61,291 nucleotides of DNA from Parcubacteria group bacterium (GCA_028286565.1 JAQBRH010000003.1:1-61291); one strand, 5' to 3'; shown: positions 15,829 to 52,958, counted from the first letter of the stretch. Made by a program: numbers and translations. Notes: generated by a model from the sequence alone, not told the origin.

Positions 15829-18411
15829 GTGAAAACCGACATGACCAAATCACGGAAACTAACTTTTCTCTCCCGCTTCGCTGCTGTGTATATGCTTGTG
15901 GCAGTGGTCTTTTCTAATTTTCCTCTGACTGCCCTTGCGGATACTCTTCTCACCGTCTCTGCGACGGCAAACGGCCAAACCGCGCTCACTCTTGCGACTT
16001 CGACCGATAGCTTCACTGTTGACCTTTCTTCGACGAACGCCACCGCCTGCCAGATGACGAGCCCCGCTCTCTCCGGTGTCACGGTCAATGCTTCGCTCGT
16101 AGTGAATCCCGGACACCCATACTATCCGCCGCTCGGAGGCAGCACGACCTTCACCTTTAACTGTACCGACGGGACCAACACCGGATCCGCGACCGTGGTC
16201 GTCTCTCTTCCTGCCGCAAGCGTCACCCCTCCTCCTCCAGGCGGAGCTGTGACCGTGGACGTGAAGGCAAACGGCTCGGACGGTCCTGTCACTCTCGCAA
16301 GCGGAGGCACCTTTACATACACTTGGACTTCGGCTAATGCGACGGCTTGCGAACAAACGTCGCCCGCGCTTACAGGGGTCTCTACTTCGGGAATTTCTAC
16401 AACCGTCGGTTCGGGTCACCCGTACTATCCATTGGTCGGAGCTCCAACGACCGTTACTATTCAGTGTACTGATGGGACAACTACCGCGACTGATTCAGTG
16501 GTCGTCGGCTTGGCTAACAACGGCGGCACCGGCTCTACCACTCCGGTGACCGTGGATGTGAAAGTGAACGGATCAGATGGCCCCACCGTCACCATCGCTT
16601 CGGGAAGTACGTATACTTACACCTGGACTTCGGCGAACGCCACCGCCTGTGAGCAGACGTCGCCCGCTCTCACCGGAGTTTCTACATTCGGATCCTCTCC
16701 TGTTGATCCTGCCCATCCGTATTATCCAGCCACTTCAACGCCGGTAACCATCACTATCCAGTGTACGGACGGTGTCACGACCGCATCCGACTCCGTGAGC
16801 GTTGCCCTTGGAGCTGTGACTCCTCCCGGAGGCGGCGGAAGCACGGTCACCGTGGACGTGAAGGCAAACGGCTCGGACGGTCCTCTTACCATTCAGAACG
16901 GAAGCCCATATACCTATACCTGGACTTCGACAAACGCCACCGCCTGCCAGCAGACCTCACCTGCGCTTACGGGCGTCGCTACTTCAGGCTCGGACGGCCC
17001 TGTCACCCCTGGCCATCCATACTATCCGGCCACCTCGACCCCGGTCACTATCACCATCAACTGTACGAACGGCTCTTCGACCGCAACCGATTCTGTGGTG
17101 ATCAGCCTCGCGAATGGCCCTGCGAATCCCGGCTGCCCGATCCCGACCATCTCAAGCGCTCTGTCGGCAAGCGTAGGAGTTAATCGACCATTTTCATACA
17201 CCATCACCGTCAATCAGGGTTCAACCACTCCGACGGTCACTGTCTCGAACCTTCCTTCGGGCCTTACCTACGACCCCGCGTCTCGCGTGATCTCCGGCGC
17301 CGTCACTCAGACCGGAACTTTCAATGTCCTCATCACCTCAGCTGATCCTTGCGGCACTGATTCACAGACGCTTGAGATCTCTGTCACTCCCGGAAGCACG
17401 AGCGGAGGCGGTGGAGGCGGTGGAGGCGGTGGAGGCGGCGGTTCTACCACTACGCCCGGCGGACATCGCCACCCTCCTACCCCCGAGGCTCCTGCTGCCT
17501 GCGATTTCCTCAAGGATTATATGAGAGCGGATTTCCAGAACGACCCGGTCGAGGTTATCAAGCTCCAGACCTTCCTCAAAGGCATCGAAGGCTATGACTA
17601 CGTGGCCATAAACGGCGTCTACGATCAGGCGACGATAAACGGGGTCAATGCCTTCCAGATGAAGTTTAAAGATGACATTCTCACTCCATGGGGCCACACC
17701 GCTCCTACGAGCTATGTATATATTTTGACCTTGAAGAAGATCAATGAGATCTATTGCCAGCACCTCCTGCCTCTCACCCCTGATGAGCAGAACGAGATCA
17801 ATGCCTTCCGAGCCCTCATTGAAGGCCTCAGAGGCCAAGGAGCGACCGTGGAAACGGTTGTGGAGACCTCTCCGGGGGGCTACGTCGAAGTTCCGGTCAC
17901 TCGTACAGAGAGTACGACCACCATCTCGACCTCGACTCCGGTCGAACTCCCGATAGTCGGACAGATCACCCCTCAAGGACAAAATCTCACGAACCTGGCG
18001 GCAGCGGTCTTCGCTCTCCCGGACGGATTCAAAGCCGGCATGCAGTGCCTCTATGAATGGCTGCTTATCCTGATTGTCCTTTATATCCTGGGTTCTGTCC
18101 TTAAAGATGTCCTTTATAAGGACACTCCGGAGAATATGAAGAAGAGGTTCCTCACTAAGTGGATAACTATTTCCCTCGGACTTGTGGTTGCGATCCTCAT
18201 CGCCTACGTTCTCGGAGAGTGGTGCATTATCCTCCCTCTCATCATCTCCCTTATCGTCTCCCTCGTCTGGATGGCCTTCTTCCCAAAGCACGGGTCGGTC
18301 AAAGCTTCTACCAGATCTTGGTACATCGTTCTCGCCGCCCGAGCCCGCAGCATGTTCTCAAAACGAGAGCCGGCGGCTATCATCATCGGCCCTACTGAAC
18401 CGAAGAAATAA
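15829..18411 (+). CDS. large surface protein: signal peptide, 4 tandem ~99-aa repeats, Ig-like domain, poly-Gly, peptidoglycan-binding-like domain, C-terminal TM helices
   Basis: Repeats start VTVDVKANGSDGP...TYTWTS.NATAC.QTSPALTGV...GHPYYP...C(T/N)(D/N)G. Also NLPSGLTYD...ISG Ig-like motif, G13 tract, IKLQTFLKG...GVYDQATINGVNAFQ (PG-binding-1-like) and 3-4 C-terminal TM helices. GTG start at 15829, with an alternative ATG at 15841. Confidence 0.75.
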   Translation: MKTDMTKSRKLTFLSRFAAVYMLVAVVFSNFPLTALADTLLTVSATANGQTALTLATSTDSFTVDLSSTNATACQMTSPALSGVTVNASLVVNPGHPYYPPLGGSTTFTFNCTDGTNTGSATVVVSLPAASVTPPPPGGAVTVDVKANGSDGPVTLASGGTFTYTWTSANATACEQTSPALTGVSTSGISTTVGSGHPYYPLVGAPTTVTIQCTDGTTTATDSVVVGLANNGGTGSTTPVTVDVKVNGSDGPTVTIASGSTYTYTWTSANATACEQTSPALTGVSTFGSSPVDPAHPYYPATSTPVTITIQCTDGVTTASDSVSVALGAVTPPGGGGSTVTVDVKANGSDGPLTIQNGSPYTYTWTSTNATACQQTSPALTGVATSGSDGPVTPGHPYYPATSTPVTITINCTNGSSTATDSVVISLANGPANPGCPIPTISSALSASVGVNRPFSYTITVNQGSTTPTVTVSNLPSGLTYDPASRVISGAVTQTGTFNVLITSADPCGTDSQTLEISVTPGSTSGGGGGGGGGGGGGSTTTPGGHRHPPTPEAPAACDFLKDYMRADFQNDPVEVIKLQTFLKGIEGYDYVAINGVYDQATINGVNAFQMKFKDDILTPWGHTAPTSYVYILTLKKINEIYCQHLLPLTPDEQNEINAFRALIEGLRGQGATVETVVETSPGGYVEVPVTRTESTTTISTSTPVELPIVGQITPQGQNLTNLAAAVFALPDGFKAGMQCLYEWLLILIVLYILGSVLKDVLYKDTPENMKKRFLTKWITISLGLVVAILIAYVLGEWCIILPLIISLIVSLVWMAFFPKHGSVKASTRSWYIVLAARARSMFSKREPAAIIIGPTEPKK
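15940..17130 (+). repeat. four in-frame tandem repeats of ~297-300 nt inside the surface-protein gene
   Basis: Unit starts gtgaccgtggacgtgaaggcaaacggc at 16249 and 16846 (16846 differs only in its third nucleotide), and gtgaccgtggatgtgaaagtgaacgga at 16546. The first unit is more diverged. Confidence 0.7.
17404..17442 (+). repeat. 9-nt microsatellite (GGAGGCGGT)x3 plus variant units, encoding Gly13
   Basis: ggaggcggt ggaggcggt ggaggcggt ggaggcggc ggt, read directly. Confidence 0.9.
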
Positions 18412-18457: not shown

Positions 18458-19503
18458 TATAAAGAAAGATTTCCTCGAGCTTTGATCTTCTCCCCTGGTT
18501 GTATAAAAAGCGGGTCCAGTGTTTTTATGTAGGCGGTGACTCCGATCATCACAGCGTTGTCCGTGGTCAAAGATTTCTCCGGCAAAAGGAGCGTGAGTCC
18601 GGCGAATGAGTTTGCAAGCTTCGCTACTTCTTTTCGCAAATATATATTATTCGCCACCCCTCCGGCGACGATCAAGGTCTTCGCTCCGCGGGATTCGAGA
18701 GCGAGGCGAGTTTTCTCTATTAATACTTCTATGGCCGCGTCTTCAAAGGCGTGAGCCACTTCTTCCTGAAGTTCGGGCGTGATCTCTTTGTCTTTTAATA
18801 AATAGAGGACAGAGGTTTTGAGGCCCGAATATGAGAAATCAAAGTCCTTGGAGTGGATCATCGGGCGGGGGAGGATCATGCTCGGAGTAAGGCCTTTCGC
18901 TCTATGAGCCTCGGCGAGACGCGAGATCTCCGGTCCGCCCGGGTATGGAAGGCCCAAGAGCCTCGCTACCTTGTCGAAGGCTTCTCCGACCGCGTCGTCC
19001 CTGGTCTTGCCTAATATTTTATATTGGCCGAAGTTCTCTATGTGGACGATCTCTGTATGGCCTCCGGAAACAAGGAGGGCAAGGGCGGGGAAGGCGAGCG
19101 CCTCCTTCACGTTGAAAATAGCCGAATAGATGTGGCCTTCCATATGGTTCACCGGAAGCACGGGCTTCTTATATGTTTCTCCGAGTTCTTCGGCGAAGAG
19201 GATGCCGGTCCAAAGGGCGGGTTCAAGCCCGGGGCCCGAAGTGACTGCGATGAGATCTATCCCTTCGAGGTTCTCCGGAATATTCGCTTCACCGAGAGCC
19301 TTCTTTAAAATGATGGGAAGATTCTTTTGATGCTCGCGCTTGGCCAGGTGGGGGACGACGCCTCCGAACTCCTGGTGGAGATCGATCTGGGAGATGAGGG
19401 AATTCCCGAGGATCTTAAACTCGGGCTTCTCGAGCCCTCCGGCAGCCTCCAAAACGGCTATAGCCGTCTCGTCACACGATGTTTCTATGGCCAGGATTTT
19501 CAT
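18457..19503 (-). CDS. tsaD: tRNA N6-adenosine threonylcarbamoyltransferase TsaD (Kae1/Gcp family)
   Basis: Canonical start MKILAIETSCDETAIAVLE, then HMEGHIYS and VSGGHTEIV. The 38 extra N-terminal codons of the listed ORF overlap tRNA-Ser and are rejected. Confidence 0.9.
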   Translation of the reverse strand: MKILAIETSCDETAIAVLEAAGGLEKPEFKILGNSLISQIDLHQEFGGVVPHLAKREHQKNLPIILKKALGEANIPENLEGIDLIAVTSGPGLEPALWTGILFAEELGETYKKPVLPVNHMEGHIYSAIFNVKEALAFPALALLVSGGHTEIVHIENFGQYKILGKTRDDAVGEAFDKVARLLGLPYPGGPEISRLAEAHRAKGLTPSMILPRPMIHSKDFDFSYSGLKTSVLYLLKDKEITPELQEEVAHAFEDAAIEVLIEKTRLALESRGAKTLIVAGGVANNIYLRKEVAKLANSFAGLTLLLPEKSLTTDNAVMIGVTAYIKTLDPLFIQPGEKIKARGNLSL

Positions 19504-19593
19504 TGGCGGAAGAGGAGAGATTCGAACTCTCGAAGGGCTTTCGCCCTTGCTGGTTTTCGAAACCAGTGCCTTCAACCACTCAGCCACTCTTCC
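19504..19593 (-). tRNA. tRNA-Ser(CGA), long variable arm, CCA encoded
   Basis: Acceptor ggaagag/ctcttcc, anticodon loop ttCGAaa, variable arm caagggcgaaagcccttc, T loop ttcgaat. Confidence 0.9.
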
Positions 19594-19663
19594 TGAAGTG
19601 CCTGGCCATCCTAGCATTTTCGGGGAAAAATGTTAATATAAGCGGCGTTTCTAGCCTTTTTAA

Positions 19664-19735
19664 GGCCCTATCGTCTATCGGTTAGGACACAAGCTTTTCA
19701 AGCTTGGAAGCAGGGTTCGACTCCCTGTAGGGTCA
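19664..19735 (+). tRNA. tRNA-Glu(TTC)
   Basis: Acceptor ggcccta/tagggtc (G2-U71), anticodon arm caagc-ttTTCaa-gcttg, T arm caggg-ttcgact-ccctg. Confidence 0.9.
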
Positions 19736-19828
19736 TGGCATACGAAATGAGCGTCCGAGAGGGCGCCATTTTCGTACCATGACCCTAAGCAAGGTGACAA
19801 TTCACCTTGCGTCAGGGAGTCGAAAGGG

Positions 19829-19881
19829 TTTTCGTTATCGAGTATGCCGAGATCGAAAACCACCCGCGACGGTAGTCGAGA
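19829..19881 (+). repeat. 53-nt conserved module, left copy (inverted partner at 23472-23524)
   Basis: ttttcgttatcgagtatgCcgagatcgaaaaccacccgcgacggtagtcgaga. The reverse complement of 23472-23524 is identical except C/T at 19847. Confidence 0.95.
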
Positions 19882-19896
19882 CTCCCTGTAGGGTCA
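19880..19896 (+). repeat. exact 17-nt duplicate of the tRNA-Glu 3' end (G57 to discriminator)
   Basis: gactccctgtagggtca is identical to 19719-19735. Confidence 0.95.
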
Positions 19897-19973
19897 CAAC
19901 GGTTCCAAGTTATATTCCTCAACGTATTTTTCGTGTGGCCAAGGGGATAAAAACCACACAGATTATATGGATA

Positions 19974-20002
19974 AGAAAAAAAGGTTCAGCCGAAGCTGAA
20001 CC
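19974..20002 (-). terminator. intrinsic terminator of the 208-aa gene
   Basis: ggttcagc-cgaa-gctgaacc with a T-run on the minus strand. Confidence 0.6.
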
Positions 20003-20048
20003 CAAAGTCGAACATATTATATGCACAAGTACGGACATCTCGTCGACC

Positions 20049-20675
20049 CTATACGGTTGGGGACGCAATCACCTCACAAAAGTTGTGATAGTACCCTCTT
20101 CGAGAGGGATTAACCCATCTGATTTGGGCCTTCGTTGGGTAAGGTCCCCTCCCGAGTTTAGGAACCGAACCATCGGAAGTGAGAGATCCGTTACAGAGTG
20201 TGTCATCCCAGAAATCTTTTCCGCTCTCAACAAAGTGCTTGAGCCTTAGAACCAGACACTCCAGAAGCGTAACTCCAGGGATTTTGTGGTAAGCAAGATC
20301 GGTTGCTGAGGCAACCCGCCTTTCTCCATCCCGGATGTCATCCCTGAAACGGAACCAAACAGCATACGCACCGTTTTTGGGATTGCGATCGTTGTGACTG
20401 ACAAGCTCGTCGAGTGAGACCTCAGTGTGCTGATTAACCGATTTGTATTTCCATCGGTAGATCTCAAGCACACGCTCCAGTGTCAATCCTTGAGGGATGA
20501 CAATCACCGAGGAAATGGGGGCTTGGTAGACGGGCACCTTAACTAGCTCAAGGCTGATGCCGAAGTGGTTCCGGTAGAACTCGCGCCATTTTTCGATTTG
20601 TAGATCTGCACGCGGGTTGTTGAAATAATCGTACCACTGCTGTGGTGAGATTGTCCCAGTAGAAATTCTTGGCAT
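20049..20675 (-). CDS. hypothetical protein (208 aa, no recognisable motif)
   Basis: Start moved to MPRISTGT, which has AGAGGA 8 nt upstream. It has its own terminator. Confidence 0.5.
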   Translation of the reverse strand: MPRISTGTISPQQWYDYFNNPRADLQIEKWREFYRNHFGISLELVKVPVYQAPISSVIVIPQGLTLERVLEIYRWKYKSVNQHTEVSLDELVSHNDRNPKNGAYAVWFRFRDDIRDGERRVASATDLAYHKIPGVTLLECLVLRLKHFVESGKDFWDDTLCNGSLTSDGSVPKLGRGPYPTKAQIRWVNPSRRGYYHNFCEVIASPTV

Positions 20676-20822
20676 GATTGGGTCCTCTAGAAGTGGTGTA
20701 ATCGCCCAATCGTGGGCAATATAGGCTTGTGTATATAAGGAGCGACTTTTCAAACAATACAACATTTACCGAGATAATTCAAGTGGTTCATAAATGAGCT
20801 GAGGTAAGATATTTACACACCC

Positions 20823-20855
20823 GGTTCCAATCCTGTACAGCATGGGTCACTTGAC
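20823..20855 (+). repeat. T-arm-like intergenic repeat R1 with attached -35 box
   Basis: ggttccaatcctgtacagcatgggtcacTTGAC. A TTGACA-N17-TATAGT promoter follows. Confidence 0.8.
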
Positions 20856-20914
20856 AATCTAATACATTGTATATATAGTGCTTTTAGCCTGCACACTCAA
20901 CCTTTGAGGGAATT

Positions 20915-21304
20915 ATGAGCAAAAAGAATCCGCTGATCCTCGTTGCTGATACCGACGGGCATTACCGCAACGAGAAAGAGCGTATGCTCCGTGCACGAGG
21001 TTTTCAAGTAGTCCTCATGGACGAGGCAAGCGAGATTCTCGAGTTCGCCGAGCAACATCATCCGGATCTGATCATAACTACGTTACTCCTGAGTGGAAAC
21101 TCCGGCTTAAACGGAGGAGATGTCTGTGCAGCCCTCCGCCGTGGAGACGCGACGCGAGACATCAGGCTCGTGATTCATACCGGAGCAGACCTCAGACCAG
21201 AGGACATGCAATATTTTATTGCTCAGGGCGCCGACGGAGTCCTGCCCAAGTCGGAATCCCTGGATGGTTTGTATTCAGTGATCTGTGAGCTTCTGCGCAC
21301 ATGA
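20915..21304 (+). CDS. stand-alone receiver (CheY-like) domain lacking the phospho-acceptor Asp
   Basis: ILVADTDG...PDLIITTLLL...RLVIHTGAD...GADGVLPKS. Aligned by eye to CheY, T87 and K109 are kept but D57 aligns with Thr. Confidence 0.6.
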   Translation: MSKKNPLILVADTDGHYRNEKERMLRARGFQVVLMDEASEILEFAEQHHPDLIITTLLLSGNSGLNGGDVCAALRRGDATRDIRLVIHTGADLRPEDMQYFIAQGADGVLPKSESLDGLYSVICELLRT

Positions 21305-21313
21305 TCAATAGGG

Positions 21314-21338
21314 CCCCGATTTCGGTCGGGGTTTTTTT
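21314..21338 (+). terminator. intrinsic terminator
   Basis: ccccga-tttcgg-tcgggg followed by ttttttt. Confidence 0.65.
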
Positions 21339-21363
21339 CATATCAAAATTCCTGAAAAGCACC

Positions 21364-21413
21364 TATATACCTATAGACTTGGTTCCAATCCTGTATAATT
21401 AGGGTCACTTGAC
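21364..21413 (+). repeat. T-arm-like intergenic repeat R2 (extended form)
   Basis: tatatacctatagacttggttccaatcctgtataattagggtcacTTGAC. A TTGACT-N17-TATAAC promoter follows. Confidence 0.8.
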
Positions 21414-21466
21414 TTTTAATAATAATTAGTATATAACGCACTCCAGTTCTTTCACTGGAGGTTTGA

Positions 21467-21751
21467 ATGATACGCAGTAGCAAGAAACAACCTCTGCGCG
21501 GCGATGACATCGTGGCTCGCTTCCCAAACGGGTTAGATGTACCATCCTTTTGGCATAGTGAAGCGCAGCAGTACGTCGTCAACATCAGAGAGCCCATCCG
21601 ACTGTATCGTGATCCGAGCAATCGATTCGATGCCTGGTGGGTAGACATTTCTTCACTGTACGAAGAGGGTGAAGAGCCGAGGTTGATAAAACCTCAGTAC
21701 GCTAAGTACCCACTTCGCGGCAGTGCCAATCAATTCGTGATCCACGGGTAA
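21467..21751 (+). CDS. hypothetical protein (94 aa)
   Basis: ORF between repeat R2 and a terminator hairpin (gatctcacgc/gcgtgagatc plus T-run at about 21800-21830). Confidence 0.45.
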   Translation: MIRSSKKQPLRGDDIVARFPNGLDVPSFWHSEAQQYVVNIREPIRLYRDPSNRFDAWWVDISSLYEEGEEPRLIKPQYAKYPLRGSANQFVIHG

Positions 21752-21829
21752 GACGACAAACAAAAAGTCTTGTACCAAACTCCAGCCTTACAGTATCTCG
21801 ATCTCACGCCGTGCGTGAGATCTTTCGTT

Positions 21830-21874
21830 TATATACCCATAGACTCGGTTCCAATCTCGTATACTATGGGTCAC
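21830..21874 (+). repeat. T-arm-like intergenic repeat R3 (extended form)
   Basis: tatatacccatagactcggttccaatctcgtatactatgggtcac. Confidence 0.8.
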
Positions 21875-21921
21875 ATAAAGAGATACATTTTTCTCAACGT
21901 ACTTTGGTATAATACAGCCCA

Positions 21922-22821
21922 ATGAAACATGTAATTGAATCTCAACAATTTACTAGAGATTTAATTGATAAACTATTCCGTCTTGCTCATAAACTTGAGA
22001 AGAAGCCTGATAACTCTTTGAAAGGCAAAATAATGGCTTCAGTCTTCTATGAACCGAGTACCAGAACTCGGTTTTCTTTTGAATCCGCGATGATCCGATT
22101 AGGGGGAAATGTAATTACGACAGAAAATGCAAAAGAATTTTCCTCTGCTGCCAAAGGAGAAACTTTGGAGGACTCAATTAGAGTAATAAATAATTATGCC
22201 GATATAATTGTTCTAAGACACCATGAACAAGGTGCTTCAAAAAGAGCTTCTTTGGTCTCTGGCGTTCCGATAATCAATGCTGGCGATGGAATTGGACAAC
22301 ACCCCACCCAAGCATTGCTAGACCTTTATACGATCGAGAGAGAATTAGGGAAAATTGATGGCACTGTCATAGCCTTGGTTGGAGACTTGAAGCACGGGAG
22401 AACCATTAGATCCTTGGCTTATTTGTTAGGGAAGTATAAAAACATCCACATACAATTTGTATCGCCGGCTGCACTACGGGTTGGAAGTGATATAAAAGAT
22501 TACCTCACACGACATAAAGTTTCTTATTCAGAAACCGATGATCTCGAATTAGTCGTCTCTAGTGTTGATGTGGTGTATCAAACAAGGATTCAAAAAGAAC
22601 GATTTACGACCACAAAAGAATACCTCAAATATAAAGGCTGTTATCAGATCGGCACAACGTTGGTAAAACAGATGAAGAAAAAGTCCATCATCATGCATCC
22701 TCTGCCAAGAGTAGATGAGATCCTTTCAGAAGTTGATGCTTCACCTAAAGCTGCTTATTTTAAGCAGGCTAGGTATGGAGTGTTGGTTAGAATGGCACTT
22801 TTAAAATATCTCTTAAGTTAG
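21922..22821 (+). CDS. pyrB: aspartate carbamoyltransferase catalytic chain
   Basis: STRTRFSFE, HPTQALLD and HPLPR motifs. An extended -10 TGGTATAAT (21905-21913) ends 8 nt before the ATG. Confidence 0.9.
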   Translation: MKHVIESQQFTRDLIDKLFRLAHKLEKKPDNSLKGKIMASVFYEPSTRTRFSFESAMIRLGGNVITTENAKEFSSAAKGETLEDSIRVINNYADIIVLRHHEQGASKRASLVSGVPIINAGDGIGQHPTQALLDLYTIERELGKIDGTVIALVGDLKHGRTIRSLAYLLGKYKNIHIQFVSPAALRVGSDIKDYLTRHKVSYSETDDLELVVSSVDVVYQTRIQKERFTTTKEYLKYKGCYQIGTTLVKQMKKKSIIMHPLPRVDEILSEVDASPKAAYFKQARYGVLVRMALLKYLLS

Positions 22822-22923
22822 CAATTGCTAATTTGTATAATTATTGAGCCACCAGTACGGTAGCTTTTTTCATATCAAAATTCCTAAGGAATTCAGAACT
22901 GGTATAATAAGCGAATACCTACT

Positions 22924-23376
22924 ATGAAATCAGAAAAATCTACAGTACTGAGAATGGACAACATGGGCATCGTGGTAGAGTCTCTCGATGAGGTTGTTTC
23001 TTTTTTCATCGAACTCGGGCTCACGCTTGAGGGGCGGGCTATGATCGAAGGAGAATGGGCCGGCCGTGTTACCGGACTGGGGGACCAGCAGGTTGAGATC
23101 GCAATGATGATCACTCCCGACGGCCACAGCCGGCTCGAACTCTCGCGATTCATTACTCCGGTTGTAGTCGCAGATCACCGCCGGGCTCCCGTGAATGCTC
23201 TTGGCTACCTGCGGGCCATGTTCACCGTAAGCGACCTCGATGAGACGCTCGGGCGTCTTCAAACGCACGGCACGGAGCTCGTCGGTGAAGTGGTTCAATA
23301 CGAGAACTCGTATCGGCTCTGCTATGTTCGAGGCCCCGAGGGGCTTCTTATCGGCCTGGCTGAGGAGCTGCAGTAG
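22924..23376 (+). CDS. VOC / glyoxalase-bleomycin-resistance family protein
   Basis: MDNMGIVVESLDEVVSFF..LG and the second-half pattern LRAMFTVSDLDETLGRL...G..L. An extended -10 TGGTATAAT lies at 22900-22908. Confidence 0.75.
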   Translation: MKSEKSTVLRMDNMGIVVESLDEVVSFFIELGLTLEGRAMIEGEWAGRVTGLGDQQVEIAMMITPDGHSRLELSRFITPVVVADHRRAPVNALGYLRAMFTVSDLDETLGRLQTHGTELVGEVVQYENSYRLCYVRGPEGLLIGLAEELQ

Positions 23377-23454
23377 CCTCCTTATATTCGAAAATTCGGC
23401 TCTGAAACATGAGTCCATTCGCCCGCCTCAACTGAGTGCGGGTTTTTTATAGTA

Positions 23455-23473
23455 GGTGCGCGATACAGGATTC
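23455..23473 (-). repeat. exact 19-nt duplicate of the tRNA-Val 3' end (G57 to discriminator plus 2 trailer nt)
   Basis: ggtgcgcgatacaggattc is identical to 23660-23678. Confidence 0.95.
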
Positions 23474-23524
23474 TCGACTACCGTCGCGGGTGGTTTTCGA
23501 TCTCGACATACTCGATAACGAAAA
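23472..23524 (-). repeat. 53-nt conserved module, right copy
   Basis: Its reverse complement matches 19829-19881 at 52 of 53 positions. Confidence 0.95.
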
Positions 23525-23661
23525 TCTTACAGATTCTGTCCACTCATTGGATCTTTTGAAAAAAGCTCTCAATGAGTCTTGCGAAGCTCCAAGTATTCGC
23601 TTCTCACCCTTTCAAATCCTGCCGCAAAGCAAGCAGTTGCTTTGCTATCGCAAATCTCGGG

Positions 23662-23734
23662 TGCGCGATACAGGATTCGAACCTGTGACCCTCTCAACGT
23701 CAATGAGATGCTCTACCAACTGAGCTAACCGCGC
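23662..23734 (-). tRNA. tRNA-Val(GAC)
   Basis: Acceptor gcgcggt/atcgcgc, anticodon arm tctca-ttGACgt-tgaga, T arm acagg-ttcgaat-cctgt. Confidence 0.9.
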
Positions 23735-23810
23735 AGAACTCATATAAATTAGCTTAAAATCGACCGCCTGGCAACTCTACACAGGCGATCTTTAAGGTAA
23801 AATAAAATCT

Positions 23811-24578
23811 ATGAAAAAGTACCTTGCAGCTCTCCTCCTGGTCTCGCTCGGAAGCTATGCATATACATACGAGCAGGCCCCGTGCAGGCGGCCCATCGCA
23901 TACGCGATCCGGTCATTCGATAACCGGTTCAACATACCCGAGGATGAGTTTCGGAGTGCGGTCCATGATGCCGAAAGCTTGTGGGAGAAGGCCGCAGGCA
24001 AAGAGCTCTTTAAGGAAGATCCAAAGGGAAGCCTCGCGGTGAACCTCATCTATGATGAGCGCCAGGCGACCTCGGACAAGAACAAAACTCTCTTCGCAAA
24101 TCTTGATCAGACCAAAGAGACAGCAGGACAAGTGAAGACCGAATACACTCTCCTGGAAGCCAAGTACGAAACTCTCATCGCTTCGTATAAAAAAGACCTC
24201 CCAAAAGGAGGACGAGACCTCGAGTCTCGGAGGCAAGAGATCAACGCCCTGGCAGCCGAGATAAACACCTTAATTAAAAAATATAATTCTCTCGTCGATC
24301 AAGCGAACCAAAAGGTGGCTACCATAAATGAATCCGCCGGCCAAGAATTCAATGAAGGGGAGTACATTTCTGATGAAGCCGGGAGGAGCATCAATATCTA
24401 TGAATTCACCACCCGTCCGGAACTTGTGCGAGTGCTCGCCCATGAATTCGGGCATGCTCTGGGGCTTGATCATAATGCGAATCCGGACTCCATCATGTAC
24501 TACCTCAATCAGAGCGAAAACGGAGTTCCTACGGCCGAGGATACGGCGAGCCTGGCCCTCTTGTGCGGCCAAAAGTAA
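23811..24578 (+). CDS. secreted matrixin-type (M10) zinc metalloprotease
   Basis: Signal peptide, HEFGHALGLDH (HExxHxxGxxH) and an SIMY Met-turn. Confidence 0.8.
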   Translation: MKKYLAALLLVSLGSYAYTYEQAPCRRPIAYAIRSFDNRFNIPEDEFRSAVHDAESLWEKAAGKELFKEDPKGSLAVNLIYDERQATSDKNKTLFANLDQTKETAGQVKTEYTLLEAKYETLIASYKKDLPKGGRDLESRRQEINALAAEINTLIKKYNSLVDQANQKVATINESAGQEFNEGEYISDEAGRSINIYEFTTRPELVRVLAHEFGHALGLDHNANPDSIMYYLNQSENGVPTAEDTASLALLCGQK

Positions 24579-47347: not shown

Positions 47348-47742
47348 TGCGTACGCTTTCTCACATCGCCGCAACGATCTGTCTTCTTCTTTTGTTCGGT
47401 ATGCCGATTCTTGTATTAGGAGCACCGCCTTGTTCAGGCCCAAATTGTCTTATTCCTTGTGATGGGCCGGAATGCGGTTTTGACCACTTGGTCCAGCTTG
47501 GGATCGCTATCATCAACAACCTTATTATCTATGCGACCATCCTCACCGTGGCCGTCCTTGCGTACGCCGGGTTCACACTCGTCACGTCGGGAGGGGACGA
47601 GGGAGCGTTGAAGAAGGCCAAAGGCATGTTCTGGTCGGTTGTTAAGGGATACGTGTGGATACTCATCGCTTGGATTCTCGTCTATACTGTTATGAACGCC
47701 TTGGTAGACCCTTCATACAATTCTGTCCTTGGTAAACCATAA
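47344..47742 (+). CDS. small T4SS-pilin-like (TrbC/VirB2-type architecture) protein 1, Cys-rich N-terminus
   Basis: Signal peptide, CSGPNCLIPCDGPEC, then two hydrophobic helices separated by GGDEGALKKAKG. Confidence 0.6.
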   Translation: MMRTLSHIAATICLLLLFGMPILVLGAPPCSGPNCLIPCDGPECGFDHLVQLGIAIINNLIIYATILTVAVLAYAGFTLVTSGGDEGALKKAKGMFWSVVKGYVWILIAWILVYTVMNALVDPSYNSVLGKP

Positions 47743-47743
47743 A

Positions 47744-48169
47744 ATGAAAAAATATCTTCCAGGAATTCTCGCGGTTATCTTCCTACTCATGATTTCTGTT
47801 TCGGTGGCGTATGCTCAGCCAGCTCCCGGCAGCGGTACCGTGCCTGCCAACCCCCCGGGACACGGTACAGTGCCAGGAAGTAATGTCAGTGTTACCCCGA
47901 TCCTCACGAACCCATTTTCCAAAGGAGGCAATTCCCTCATCGACCTCTTCAATGCCATTCTAAAAAATATCGTTCTGCCGATCGGCGGAGTGATCATTAT
48001 CCTCGCTTTCATCTACTCGGGGTTTCTCTATGTCTCGGCTCAAGGGGATGAGAACAAGGTCAGTACGGCGCACCGCGCCTTCCTCTACACCGCGGTCGGG
48101 GCGGCCATTCTCCTCGGAGCCGAAGCGATCTCGGTTGTGATATCCAATACTATAAGCAGCCTGAAATGA
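47744..48169 (+). CDS. small T4SS-pilin-like protein 2
   Basis: Start moved to MKKYLPG. Signal peptide and two helices separated by AQGDENKVSTAHR. Confidence 0.6.
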   Translation: MKKYLPGILAVIFLLMISVSVAYAQPAPGSGTVPANPPGHGTVPGSNVSVTPILTNPFSKGGNSLIDLFNAILKNIVLPIGGVIIILAFIYSGFLYVSAQGDENKVSTAHRAFLYTAVGAAILLGAEAISVVISNTISSLK

Positions 48170-52424: not shown

Positions 52425-52958
52425 TTATTGATTGACGATCGCATACGTCTGAGCGTTCCATCCGTGGAATGAATACAGCGGATTACCGTCCACCCATTTT
52501 GTCCCCGCGTGCTGGATATCGTATCGGGAGGCGTTCTCCATTCGGGCTGCCAGAGCATAGCTTGTCCCATCGCTCCAATATGCATATGTAGCCGGACCAG
52601 CTGTTGTACTCCAGGGCCACATACATACATTGACCGGATCGTGCGACTGAGCGCTGATGTATCCCGAGCTCCATGTGTACGCCCCATTATCAGGCATCCA
52701 ATTTGTGGCTTGCCAGCAATCTGCGAACCAGGTGTTTCCATTGTATGTGGTAATCGGATAATGCCCTGATGTATCCGCATACAATCTGAGAGCGGTGACC
52801 ATTTGCCTCAGGGTTTGGATCCTCTGAGCATCTCGAGCCTTTGAGCGCGCGCTTTGAAGACTTGAGAGGATGATGGACGAAAGAAGGCTGATGATAGATA
52901 TCACCACCAAGAGTTCGATCAGGGTGAAACCGCGGTTCTTTCTCGAAGATATCTTCAT
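52425..52958 (-). CDS. type IV pilin / pseudopilin (prepilin N-terminal methylation motif)
   Basis: RGFTLIELLVVISIISLLSSIIL, the class III signal peptide. Confidence 0.85.
   Translation of the reverse strand: MKISSRKNRGFTLIELLVVISIISLLSSIILSSLQSARSKARDAQRIQTLRQMVTALRLYADTSGHYPITTYNGNTWFADCWQATNWMPDNGAYTWSSGYISAQSHDPVNVCMWPWSTTAGPATYAYWSDGTSYALAARMENASRYDIQHAGTKWVDGNPLYSFHGWNAQTYAIVNQ

Follow-up and report, generated by a model that had tools for sequence, protein, structure and literature searches.

The stretch of Parcubacteria group bacterium DNA analyzed here (GCA_028286565.1, JAQBRH010000003.1:1-61291; 61,291 nucleotides (nt), called the window below and numbered from its first letter) contains two intact tRNA genes, tRNA-Glu(UUC) and tRNA-Val(GAC), that converge and are each followed by a short insert ending in a second copy of that gene's own 3' end. 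The last 17 nt of tRNA-Glu (19719-19735, G57 to A73) are repeated exactly at 19880-19896, and for tRNA-Val an exact 19-nt copy, at 23455-23473, covers the final 17 nt of the gene and 2 nt of its trailer (23660-23678). The starting point of each copy is G57, in the T loop. When all 11 tRNA genes of the window were checked these were the only long extra tRNA copies found, and the chance expectation for a 17-mer that recurs exactly no more than 400 nt from a fixed site is about 2e-8. The original prediction, made from the sequence alone, had named the two converging genes and both duplicates with their shared G57 start, and had seen in them the footprint of integration into tRNA 3' halves; ARAGORN and Rfam agree on the genes, the 17- and 19-nt copies are exact, and they are of the kind that is left by insertion with the gene restored. 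It is textbook knowledge that such events leave direct repeats of tRNA 3' parts (PMC9897764 and, for tycheposons, 10.1101/2020.12.28.424599).

The same prediction took the two duplicates to bracket the 3.6 kb between them as one accessory island, and this fails, as each closes a short insert behind its own tRNA gene. Each duplicate lies 3' of the tRNA gene that it copies and points the same way, so the inserted DNA is the 144 nt (Glu) or 186 nt (Val) between gene and duplicate and not the 3.6 kb. Including the distal repeat, the inserts occupy 19736-19896 and 23455-23661 (~160-200 bases) and hold no gene. A 57-nt inverted repeat that is 96% complementary (19829-19885 and 23468-23524) lies beside both copies; the repeat that had been noticed as a 53-nt module is thus real, but it lies inside each interval between tRNA and duplicate, as a module shared by the two inserts. 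The three features that had seemed not to fit an integrated element (the short distances, the inward-facing duplicates and the unrelated genes of the 3.6 kb) vanish as difficulties once the short inserts are the elements: the short distance is usual (70-320 nt in 22 other cases, below), and the duplicates face inward because the two tRNA genes converge and for no other reason. The CAAC that follows the distal Glu repeat is the native tRNA-Glu trailer in a relative (L001; L numbers denote loci compared). The window holds two separate gene-less inserts, each closed by a duplicate of its own tRNA end.

Below, a is the tRNA 3' part, a' is its split reverse complement and a module is a two-hairpin block, which is of type M1 here. 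The order in the inserts is a, spacer or terminator, a' split by a hairpin (Hp1), the two-hairpin module (hairpins Hp2 and Hp3) and a again; Table 1 gives the coordinates. The original prediction overlooked the inverted tRNA 3' copy, a', that is present in each insert. In the Glu insert a' is a perfect 20-nt complement of a, and such a pair is found throughout the family described below. It is of the complement type, with A opposite T67 or T71 where the tRNA has a G·T pair; thus a'A of the Glu insert has A opposite T71, unlike the G of the real 5' strand. The tRNA 3' end and a' form a palindrome that the outer stem of the Glu spacer prolongs, and this stem and the first 8 nt of the spacer align with the closest relative. 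The M1 copy of the Val insert is without the 5' AGG and is joined directly to an M2 module, whose motif also occurs behind tRNA-Phe in L026 and L067; the 35-nt motif GGTGAGAAAGCGAATACTTGGAGCTTTCGCAAGAC is near-invariant across these distant genomes (window 23560-23600, L026 7536-7570, L067 15733-15767), and the window copy is short by one A·T stem pair, a compensated deletion, with the 11-nt loop GAATACTTGGA conserved. When each tRNA was folded as RNA together with its insert, both were far more stable than shuffled sequences (z = -10 for Glu and -3.4 for Val).

Table 1. Features of the two tRNA-tail inserts and of the interval between them (window coordinates).
Feature	Position	Strand	Remarks
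tRNA-Glu(UUC)	19664-19735	+	intact; ARAGORN and Rfam
Glu spacer	19736-19779	+	terminator-like hairpin, GC stem 19751-19766, then ATTTT
a'A of Glu insert, TGACCCTA	19780-19787	+	exact reverse complement of tRNA-Glu 66-73
Hp1 of Glu insert	19788-19812	+	25-nt hairpin exactly at the acceptor/T-stem junction of a'; stem covaries in the family
a'T of Glu insert, CAGGGAGTCGAA	19813-19824	+	exact reverse complement of tRNA-Glu 54-65
Module M1	19825-19879	+	AGG, Hp2 (19828-19860), CACC, Hp3 (19865-19879)
Distal tRNA-Glu G57-A73 copy (a)	19880-19896	+	exact direct repeat
tRNA-Val(GAC)	23662-23734	-	intact; ARAGORN and Rfam
Decayed a' of Val insert	23611-23661	-	includes Hp1; 7-nt spacer, no terminator
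a'A of Val insert, TTTGCGAT	23647-23654	-	6/8 matches
Hp1 of Val insert, loop AACTGCTT	23623-23646	-	between a'T and a'A
a'T of Val insert, GCAGGATTTGAA	23611-23622	-	10/12 matches
AGG linker and module M2 (GGTGAG type)	23525-23610	-	hairpin with conserved loop GAATACTTGGA; ends CTGTAAGA
Module M1, second copy	23474-23524	-	52/53 nt identical to the Glu copy
Distal tRNA-Val G57-A73 copy plus 2 trailer nt (a)	23455-23473	-	exact direct repeat
Low-GC variable region	19897-23454	.	outside both inserts
208-aa ORFan	20049-20675	-	one distant homologue only
Asp-less receiver	20915-21304	+	Pfam
94-aa unknown	21467-21751	+	
pyrB-like carbamoyltransferase	21922-22821	+	Pfam
VOC/glyoxalase	22924-23376	+	Pfam
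D1 45-nt repeats	20806-20850, 21364-21408, 21830-21874		before the receiver, 94-aa and pyrB genes; also delimited as 20823-20850, 21381-21408, 21847-21874
D2 21-nt exact repeats	21333-21353, 22865-22885		after terminator-like sequences 3' of the receiver and pyrB genes

Inserts of this kind are a recurrent Parcubacteria family, in which Hp1 and the module are common to many tRNA genes and a and a' are always those of the local tRNA. The comparison set consisted of 80 loci around TsaD from species-representative genomes and five from relatives, and its 183 non-redundant tRNA genes were scanned, with 400-nt flanks, for direct repeats of 13 nt or more taken from the final 24 nt of the gene. Matches to its TsaD mark the window as belonging to a Parcubacteria-type (Patescibacteria) genome; exact-protein look-ups of this TsaD, of the M10 peptidase and of P0002 found none of the three on record. 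Such a 3' duplicate lies downstream of 22 of the 183 (~12%, about one in eight) and upstream of 1, at distances of 70-320 nt from the tRNA in the 22 cases; inverted copies of at least 10 nt number 18 downstream and 2 upstream. Placed side by side, the duplicated tRNAs share the layout a / spacer-terminator / a' with Hp1 / module / a, with several types of module (M1, M2, which ends CTGTAAG, M3 and M4). The 22-mer of the module matched nothing in viral or metagenome contigs, and only a gapped M1 pattern found matches in metagenomes: there were 12, and all 12 sit 40-150 nt behind a tRNA gene (Asp, Ala-GGC four times, Ile-UAU, Val-CAC twice, Ser-UGA, Gln, Glu and Val-GAC) with a and a' matching that local tRNA. 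A covariance model of M1 built from 13 copies and run on 1.3 Mb gave 25 matches, 22 of which lie 0-235 nt downstream of a tRNA gene on the same strand; the other three are those of L092, where the contig end cuts the tRNA, of L026, where it cuts the place expected for one, and of L014, which is weak (E = 0.91). The distal a of every one of the 13 M1 copies starts at position 57, with Hp3 immediately before it; the module-to-a junction of the M1 type is fixed at C56|R57 of the T loop.

The hairpins are conserved more as structures than as strings of bases. RNAalifold finds compensatory changes in Hp1 and Hp2, and in the alignment of 25 sequences 98.2% of the cells pair and both-side changes occur in 18 of 20 pairs; the covariation score is 0.65, compared with 0.14 for shuffled alignments and at most 0.11 with slid partners, in an alignment that was fitted to its own covariance model. 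Hp3 covaries by eye (CGAC/GTCG, CCAC/GTGG, GTCGA/TCGAC and GGCTAC/GTAGCC), and on the strength of this covariation we ruled out a double-stranded serine-integrase half-site at the end of the module. Sequence is conserved in the Hp1 loop (ACTGCT) and in the linkers GAAAGG and CACC; Hp1 is 22-25 nt long and placed exactly at the acceptor/T-stem junction (65/66). Of 29 elements, 23 fold more stably as the tRNA-sense strand than as its complement (mean difference -6.3 kcal/mol, p = 5e-5), which suggests that it is the sense strand that folds, with the caveat of base composition.

The inserts also bear signs of movement and replacement. The Hp3 variant CGCGACGGTAGTCGAG is present behind the Glu and Val genes here, behind Gln in L093 and behind Val-CAC in L089. 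In L006, the closest relative (TsaD 89% identical), the orthologous tRNA-Glu is the same and is followed by the same first 8 trailer nt, a' remnants and the same repeat, so that the flanks are conserved around a module of type M3 that is unrelated to M1; the L006 contig stops exactly at this repeat. Two genomes share an Ala-GGC element with 98% identity (129/131), against 56-63% for its flanks. Tandem arrays are present in L049, L067, L086 and L092, the last three with mixed types. In L049 (8400-8906) three identical units of 123 nt, each made up of a 104-nt insert and a 19-nt 3' repeat, stand behind a tRNA-Arg gene, all with the order terminator, a', module, a. Behind tRNA-Ser(ACU) in L019 (2090-3700) an inner empty unit is followed by an outer unit with two small membrane-protein genes; this cargo lies between a and a', and the unit ends with an M3 module and a 21-nt repeat. 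The inserts can thus carry cargo genes. A different, nuclease-bearing kind of tRNA-tail insert is present in L014 (12822-13300), where a gene for a 72-aa GIY-YIG nuclease lies between tRNA-Phe and a partial tRNA copy of more than 50 nt that is broken by a hairpin in the anticodon loop.

The tRNA-matching parts appear to age separately. The distal a departs from the tRNA at 22 sites (position 60 or higher); a' is complementary to the tRNA at 15 of them, to the repeat at 3 and to neither at 4, and a' and the distal repeat therefore decay independently and do not co-evolve; compensatory evolution between them is not supported (3 of the 22 informative sites). The a' and distal a sequences would be made at insertion and then drift. 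The tRNA-Glu orthologues of L001, L008 and L009, which are distant genomes (TsaD 62-69% identical), have no 3' duplicate of at least 13 nt.

We consider it probable, with little more than even confidence, that the inserts are non-autonomous mobile elements that enter the tails of tRNA genes, and that the 3.6 kb is separate from them. Such an element would enter a tRNA gene and restore its 3' part, and the displaced 3' part would become the distal repeat; an enzyme encoded elsewhere would move the inserts. In a single-stranded tRNA-sense intermediate the a'/a pair may fold into a hairpin that imitates the target duplex. The empty site would then be tRNA-Glu joined directly to CAACGGTTCC, and the circle junction would be ...GGTAGTCGA joined to GACTCC...TGGCATACG.

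A number of observations weigh against mobility. Pfam searches of the five island proteins and the ~60 open reading frames (ORFs) of the 61-kb window found no integrase, transposase, reverse transcriptase or HUH protein, so the absence of a recombinase that was reported for the 3.6 kb extends to the whole window, and no Phage_integrase, Resolvase or Recombinase domain is present in the inserts, the island or the window. When the ORFs within 5 kb of 34 elements were clustered, the recurrent genes were syntenic housekeeping genes only. Scans of viral, phage and plasmid sequences gave no free or phage-borne form: those of viral contigs for the module, the D1 repeat (below), the GGTGAG motif, the Hp1 core and the junction were all empty, and blastn of the Glu insert against phage and plasmid records gave no match. 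There is no direct sign of an empty site at the same locus, of excision or of a single-stranded intermediate. The hairpin mimics only the 3' half of the T arm and not a full two-armed recombinase site, and the re-matching of a and a' at a new tRNA species is without explanation. The covariation alignment had, moreover, been fitted to its own model, the conserved loops and linkers suggest an RNA rather than a DNA site, and base composition could account for part of the folding bias towards the sense strand. The only recombinases seen near any tRNA-tail repeat are two large serine recombinases whose genes lie a few hundred nt downstream of tRNA-Arg in L045 (14480-15556, minus strand, just past a 13-nt T-arm duplicate) and L091 (1-1491, minus strand), and they are not recurrent.

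The 3.6 kb itself has a GC content of 0.39-0.48 against ~0.54 for the window, and is in this sense compositionally foreign, as had been proposed. The five genes predicted there are present, but they are not wholly unrelated units, since three share the D1 repeat and two share D2. D1 has the pattern GGTTCCAATCnnGTAn6GGGTCAC, abuts the -35 box and is T-loop-like (15/16 to tRNA-Val), ending in GGGTCAC like tRNA-Glu, without a T stem; D1 and D2 are absent from all related loci compared. They may be a shared promoter/operator module or very decayed cassette boundaries, and for D1 a promoter/operator module is at least as likely as the decayed tRNA ends of older cassettes. The receiver protein has Thr in place of the phospho-accepting Asp (DLIITT) and is a stand-alone pseudo-receiver. 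Comparison with relatives, which the original prediction had suggested as a check on the Glu-Val interval, shows that the DNA between the 3' end of tRNA-Glu and TsaD ranges in length from ~0.1 to 7.9 kb and holds different genes, as in a variable region and not a bracketed element. The usual tRNA order in relatives is Val(-) Ser(-) Glu(+), adjacent (L001, L008, L009, L010 and L012 compared); in the window (19504-23735) the Ser-Glu block is turned, Val lies 3.9 kb away beyond Glu, and TsaD abuts Ser. The best reading of the 3.6 kb is that it is the clade's variable region 3' of tRNA-Glu and part of neither insert, and tRNA-Val would have reached its far side through a local rearrangement. Elsewhere in the window are genes for a probably surface-exposed repetitive protein of 860 aa (15829-18411, plus strand) with at least four copies of a ~90-aa repeat, a 13-glycine run, a weak peptidoglycan-binding match and C-terminal membrane segments, for a TrbC/VirB2-type pilin (47729-48169, plus strand) and for a type IV pilin-like protein with an N-terminal methylation motif (52425-52958, minus strand).

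Could the inserts instead be genes? In Escherichia coli three 178-bp repeats lie downstream of the tRNA-Tyr gene at tyrT/tyrV (L098, NC_000913.3 1286700-1287330), and they resemble the inserts in their place behind a tRNA gene, in their unit length of ~180 nt and in their tandem arrangement. Each unit ends with the last 19 nt of tRNA-Tyr, from A58 of the T loop, and the units hold an inverted GGGGAAGGATGAGAA that is complementary at 13 of 15 positions to tRNA 54-68, giving the a / a' / a layout of the Parcubacteria inserts; the window inserts, as units of ~100-200 nt ending with a 3' copy from the T loop, have this rtT-type architecture. RttR, the RNA annotated there from the tRNA end to the repeat, is expressed and stress-responsive, and its mode of action is unknown (10.1101/2024.07.17.603846). 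The Parcubacteria inserts could likewise be small-RNA genes that are co-transcribed with the tRNA and excised by tRNA-processing enzymes, an explanation that we regard as unlikely but as the main rival. In this case a' and a would mimic the acceptor/T-stem helix, with Hp1 in the place of the D and anticodon arms of a real tRNA; the helix would give the RNA defined ends and perhaps a tRNA-linked regulation, and the local matching would be functional rather than an insertion footprint. The constant length and exact 65/66 position of Hp1, the covarying stems with their conserved loops and linkers, and the better folding of the tRNA-sense strand all suit such an RNA, as do the many M1 copies that have no terminator between tRNA and a' and the Ala element, which is conserved to the same degree as its tRNA. 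However, compensatory changes between a' and the distal a are missing, the inserts are patchy (~12% of tRNAs, with element-free tRNA-Glu orthologues in L001, L008 and L009), close relatives have modules of unrelated types behind one and the same tRNA, many copies, that of Glu included, have a terminator ahead of a', and 20-nt arms re-matched to each tRNA are not accounted for. No Rfam family, rtT included, matches: an Rfam cmscan of 19000-24500 (E <= 1) found tRNAs and chance matches only and did not match rtT (RF00391), and Rfam on L067 likewise gave tRNAs and chance matches and no rtT. The E. coli repeats also differ from the inserts in having no sequence similarity to them and no Hp1-type hairpin that we could identify, in being known from one tRNA locus in enterobacteria and not from many tRNAs with shared modules, and in being known as a processed RNA whose mobility has never been shown. 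The mobile-element and small-RNA explanations are not mutually exclusive.

That the 3.6 kb is a single island, ending at both duplicates, inserted site-specifically via both tRNAs and since deprived of its recombinase, is most unlikely. Its low GC, its ORFan and accessory genes, the contig of the closest relative that breaks exactly at the Glu repeat, and the well-known tRNA-flanked islands with partial tRNAs and serial integration (tycheposons, 10.1101/2020.12.28.424599) are all in keeping with an island, but the two duplicates come from different tRNAs and are mutually inverted and so cannot be the attL and attR of one element; the partner of each is 144 or 186 nt away, no further Glu- or Val-type copy is found inside or beyond the island, and identical short inserts are present at tRNAs without an adjacent island. 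Slippage or unequal crossing-over could have duplicated a tRNA 3' end and its trailer, with the hairpins as ordinary terminators and no mobility; direct repeats favour unequal crossing-over, and the three identical units of L049 and the E. coli tyrT repeats are tandem. This too is scarcely credible, since the sequence after the tRNA differs from that after the repeat, the same module stands behind many tRNA species in unrelated assemblies, and slippage does not produce an inverted copy into which a conserved hairpin has been placed. As the assembly of the window is of the metagenome type, a chimera joined at a repeated tRNA-like sequence might be imagined, but the same architecture with precise junctions occurs at more than 30 loci from independent projects and assemblers, and the probability of this is negligible.

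Some known mobile and RNA-guided systems were also considered by eye and rejected, among them a hammerhead core and a retroviral-type primer-binding site (there is no CCA complement). The two guides of an IS110-type bridge RNA pair with the adjacent left and right halves of a target, on opposite strands, and the RNA lies beside a recombinase gene; here a (57-73) and a' (54-73) cover the same segment and pair with each other, and there is no recombinase gene. IS200/IS605-TnpB elements have a Y1 transposase or TnpB, make no target duplication, and use the flank after the right end as guide; a remnant of one, or of a TnpB omega-RNA, does not agree with the lack of such genes (Pfam), the 17-19-nt duplication and the opposite orientation of the two copies within 4 kb.

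Elements that use a host recombinase are closer in layout. Integrated CTX-phi has a new dif site on one side and an inverted attP2/attP1 pair on the other, and in its single-stranded genome the two inverted dif-like sites fold into a hairpin that the host XerC recombines with dif (PMC3442271). Like CTX-phi and other integrative mobile elements exploiting Xer (IMEX), the inserts have no recombinase of their own and have inverted target-like sites close together that can fold into a mimic of the target, and in IMEX integration regenerates the target and tandem copies accumulate. The order in an integrated CTX-phi (regenerated target, body, inverted target copy, short spacer, target copy) is that of the inserts, which have the inverted target-like pair, intact tRNAs and arrays (L049, L067, L086, L092 and L019). 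They differ in that the target is a tRNA gene and not dif, the inserts are 110-200 nt long and gene-less, and their hairpin mimics one half of the T arm only; the role of Xer and the single-stranded form are known from CTX-phi and not from the inserts, and there is no Xer gene in the 61-kb window. Integron attC sites recombine as one folded single strand with a double-stranded partner (PMC4792948), and they share with the inserts imperfect palindromes whose structure is conserved over sequence and arrays beside a fixed site; integrons, too, have empty and gene-bearing units, and integrase-less arrays exist. Unlike integrons, the inserts have no IntI or attI, their stems copy the adjacent tRNA, by eye neither the R/L box consensus nor, at insert junctions, the core GTTRRRY was seen, and the island genes of the window have their own promoters.

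With classical tRNA islands, prophages and tycheposons the inserts share the direct repeat of a tRNA 3' part up to the gene end and the restored tRNA, as well as serial insertion that pushes older copies outward and the partial tRNAs scattered in islands (for integration into tRNA genes see Williams 2002, as cited in PMC9897764). The boundary of such an island is present at the short inserts and not at the 3.6 kb, which has no matching second copy. Classical islands, however, are kilobases long, encode a tyrosine or large serine recombinase, and are not known to carry an inverted target copy split by a conserved hairpin. Miniature inverted-repeat transposable element-like repeats (REP/BIME, Correia and the fungal mitochondrial double-hairpin elements) are, like the inserts, short, non-coding, hairpin-rich and multi-copy, with an enzyme acting in trans; they have fixed terminal repeats and short target duplications, whereas the inserts have, as terminal inverted repeats, copies of the target itself that are different behind each tRNA. 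Our literature search found no description of such elements in candidate-phyla bacteria, and short tRNA-tail inserts apparently have not been described so far. What is new in them is their small size, the absence of genes, the covarying hairpins, the split complement of the target, and the many tRNA species used within one bacterial lineage.

We tentatively offer a broader view, which we hold as possible but doubtful, in which Parcubacteria tRNA genes are docking sites for recombinase-less mini-cassettes, similar to those of integrons and IMEX, and the tyrT/rtT repeats are a fossil of the same process. The attachment site of a cassette would be the folded hairpin a'-Hp1-module-a, which copies the 3' half of the local tRNA; new copies would enter beside the tRNA and shift older ones outward, cassettes could be empty or gene-bearing, and the target-matching arms might be re-templated or re-converted whenever a new tRNA is entered. 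Should the inserts be mobile, they would be the smallest tRNA-gene-targeting elements described, gene-less DNA that uses an essential gene as a safe landing site by supplying a replacement for the part it displaces, and arms that always match the local tRNA then raise the question of how they are re-matched. The family also offers a possible source of the 178-bp repeats downstream of E. coli tyrT, which have long lacked an explanation, and it accounts for contigs that break, and for island boundaries falsely called, beside tRNAs in candidate-phyla genomes; programs that find islands from tRNA-fragment repeats should expect short inserts of this kind.

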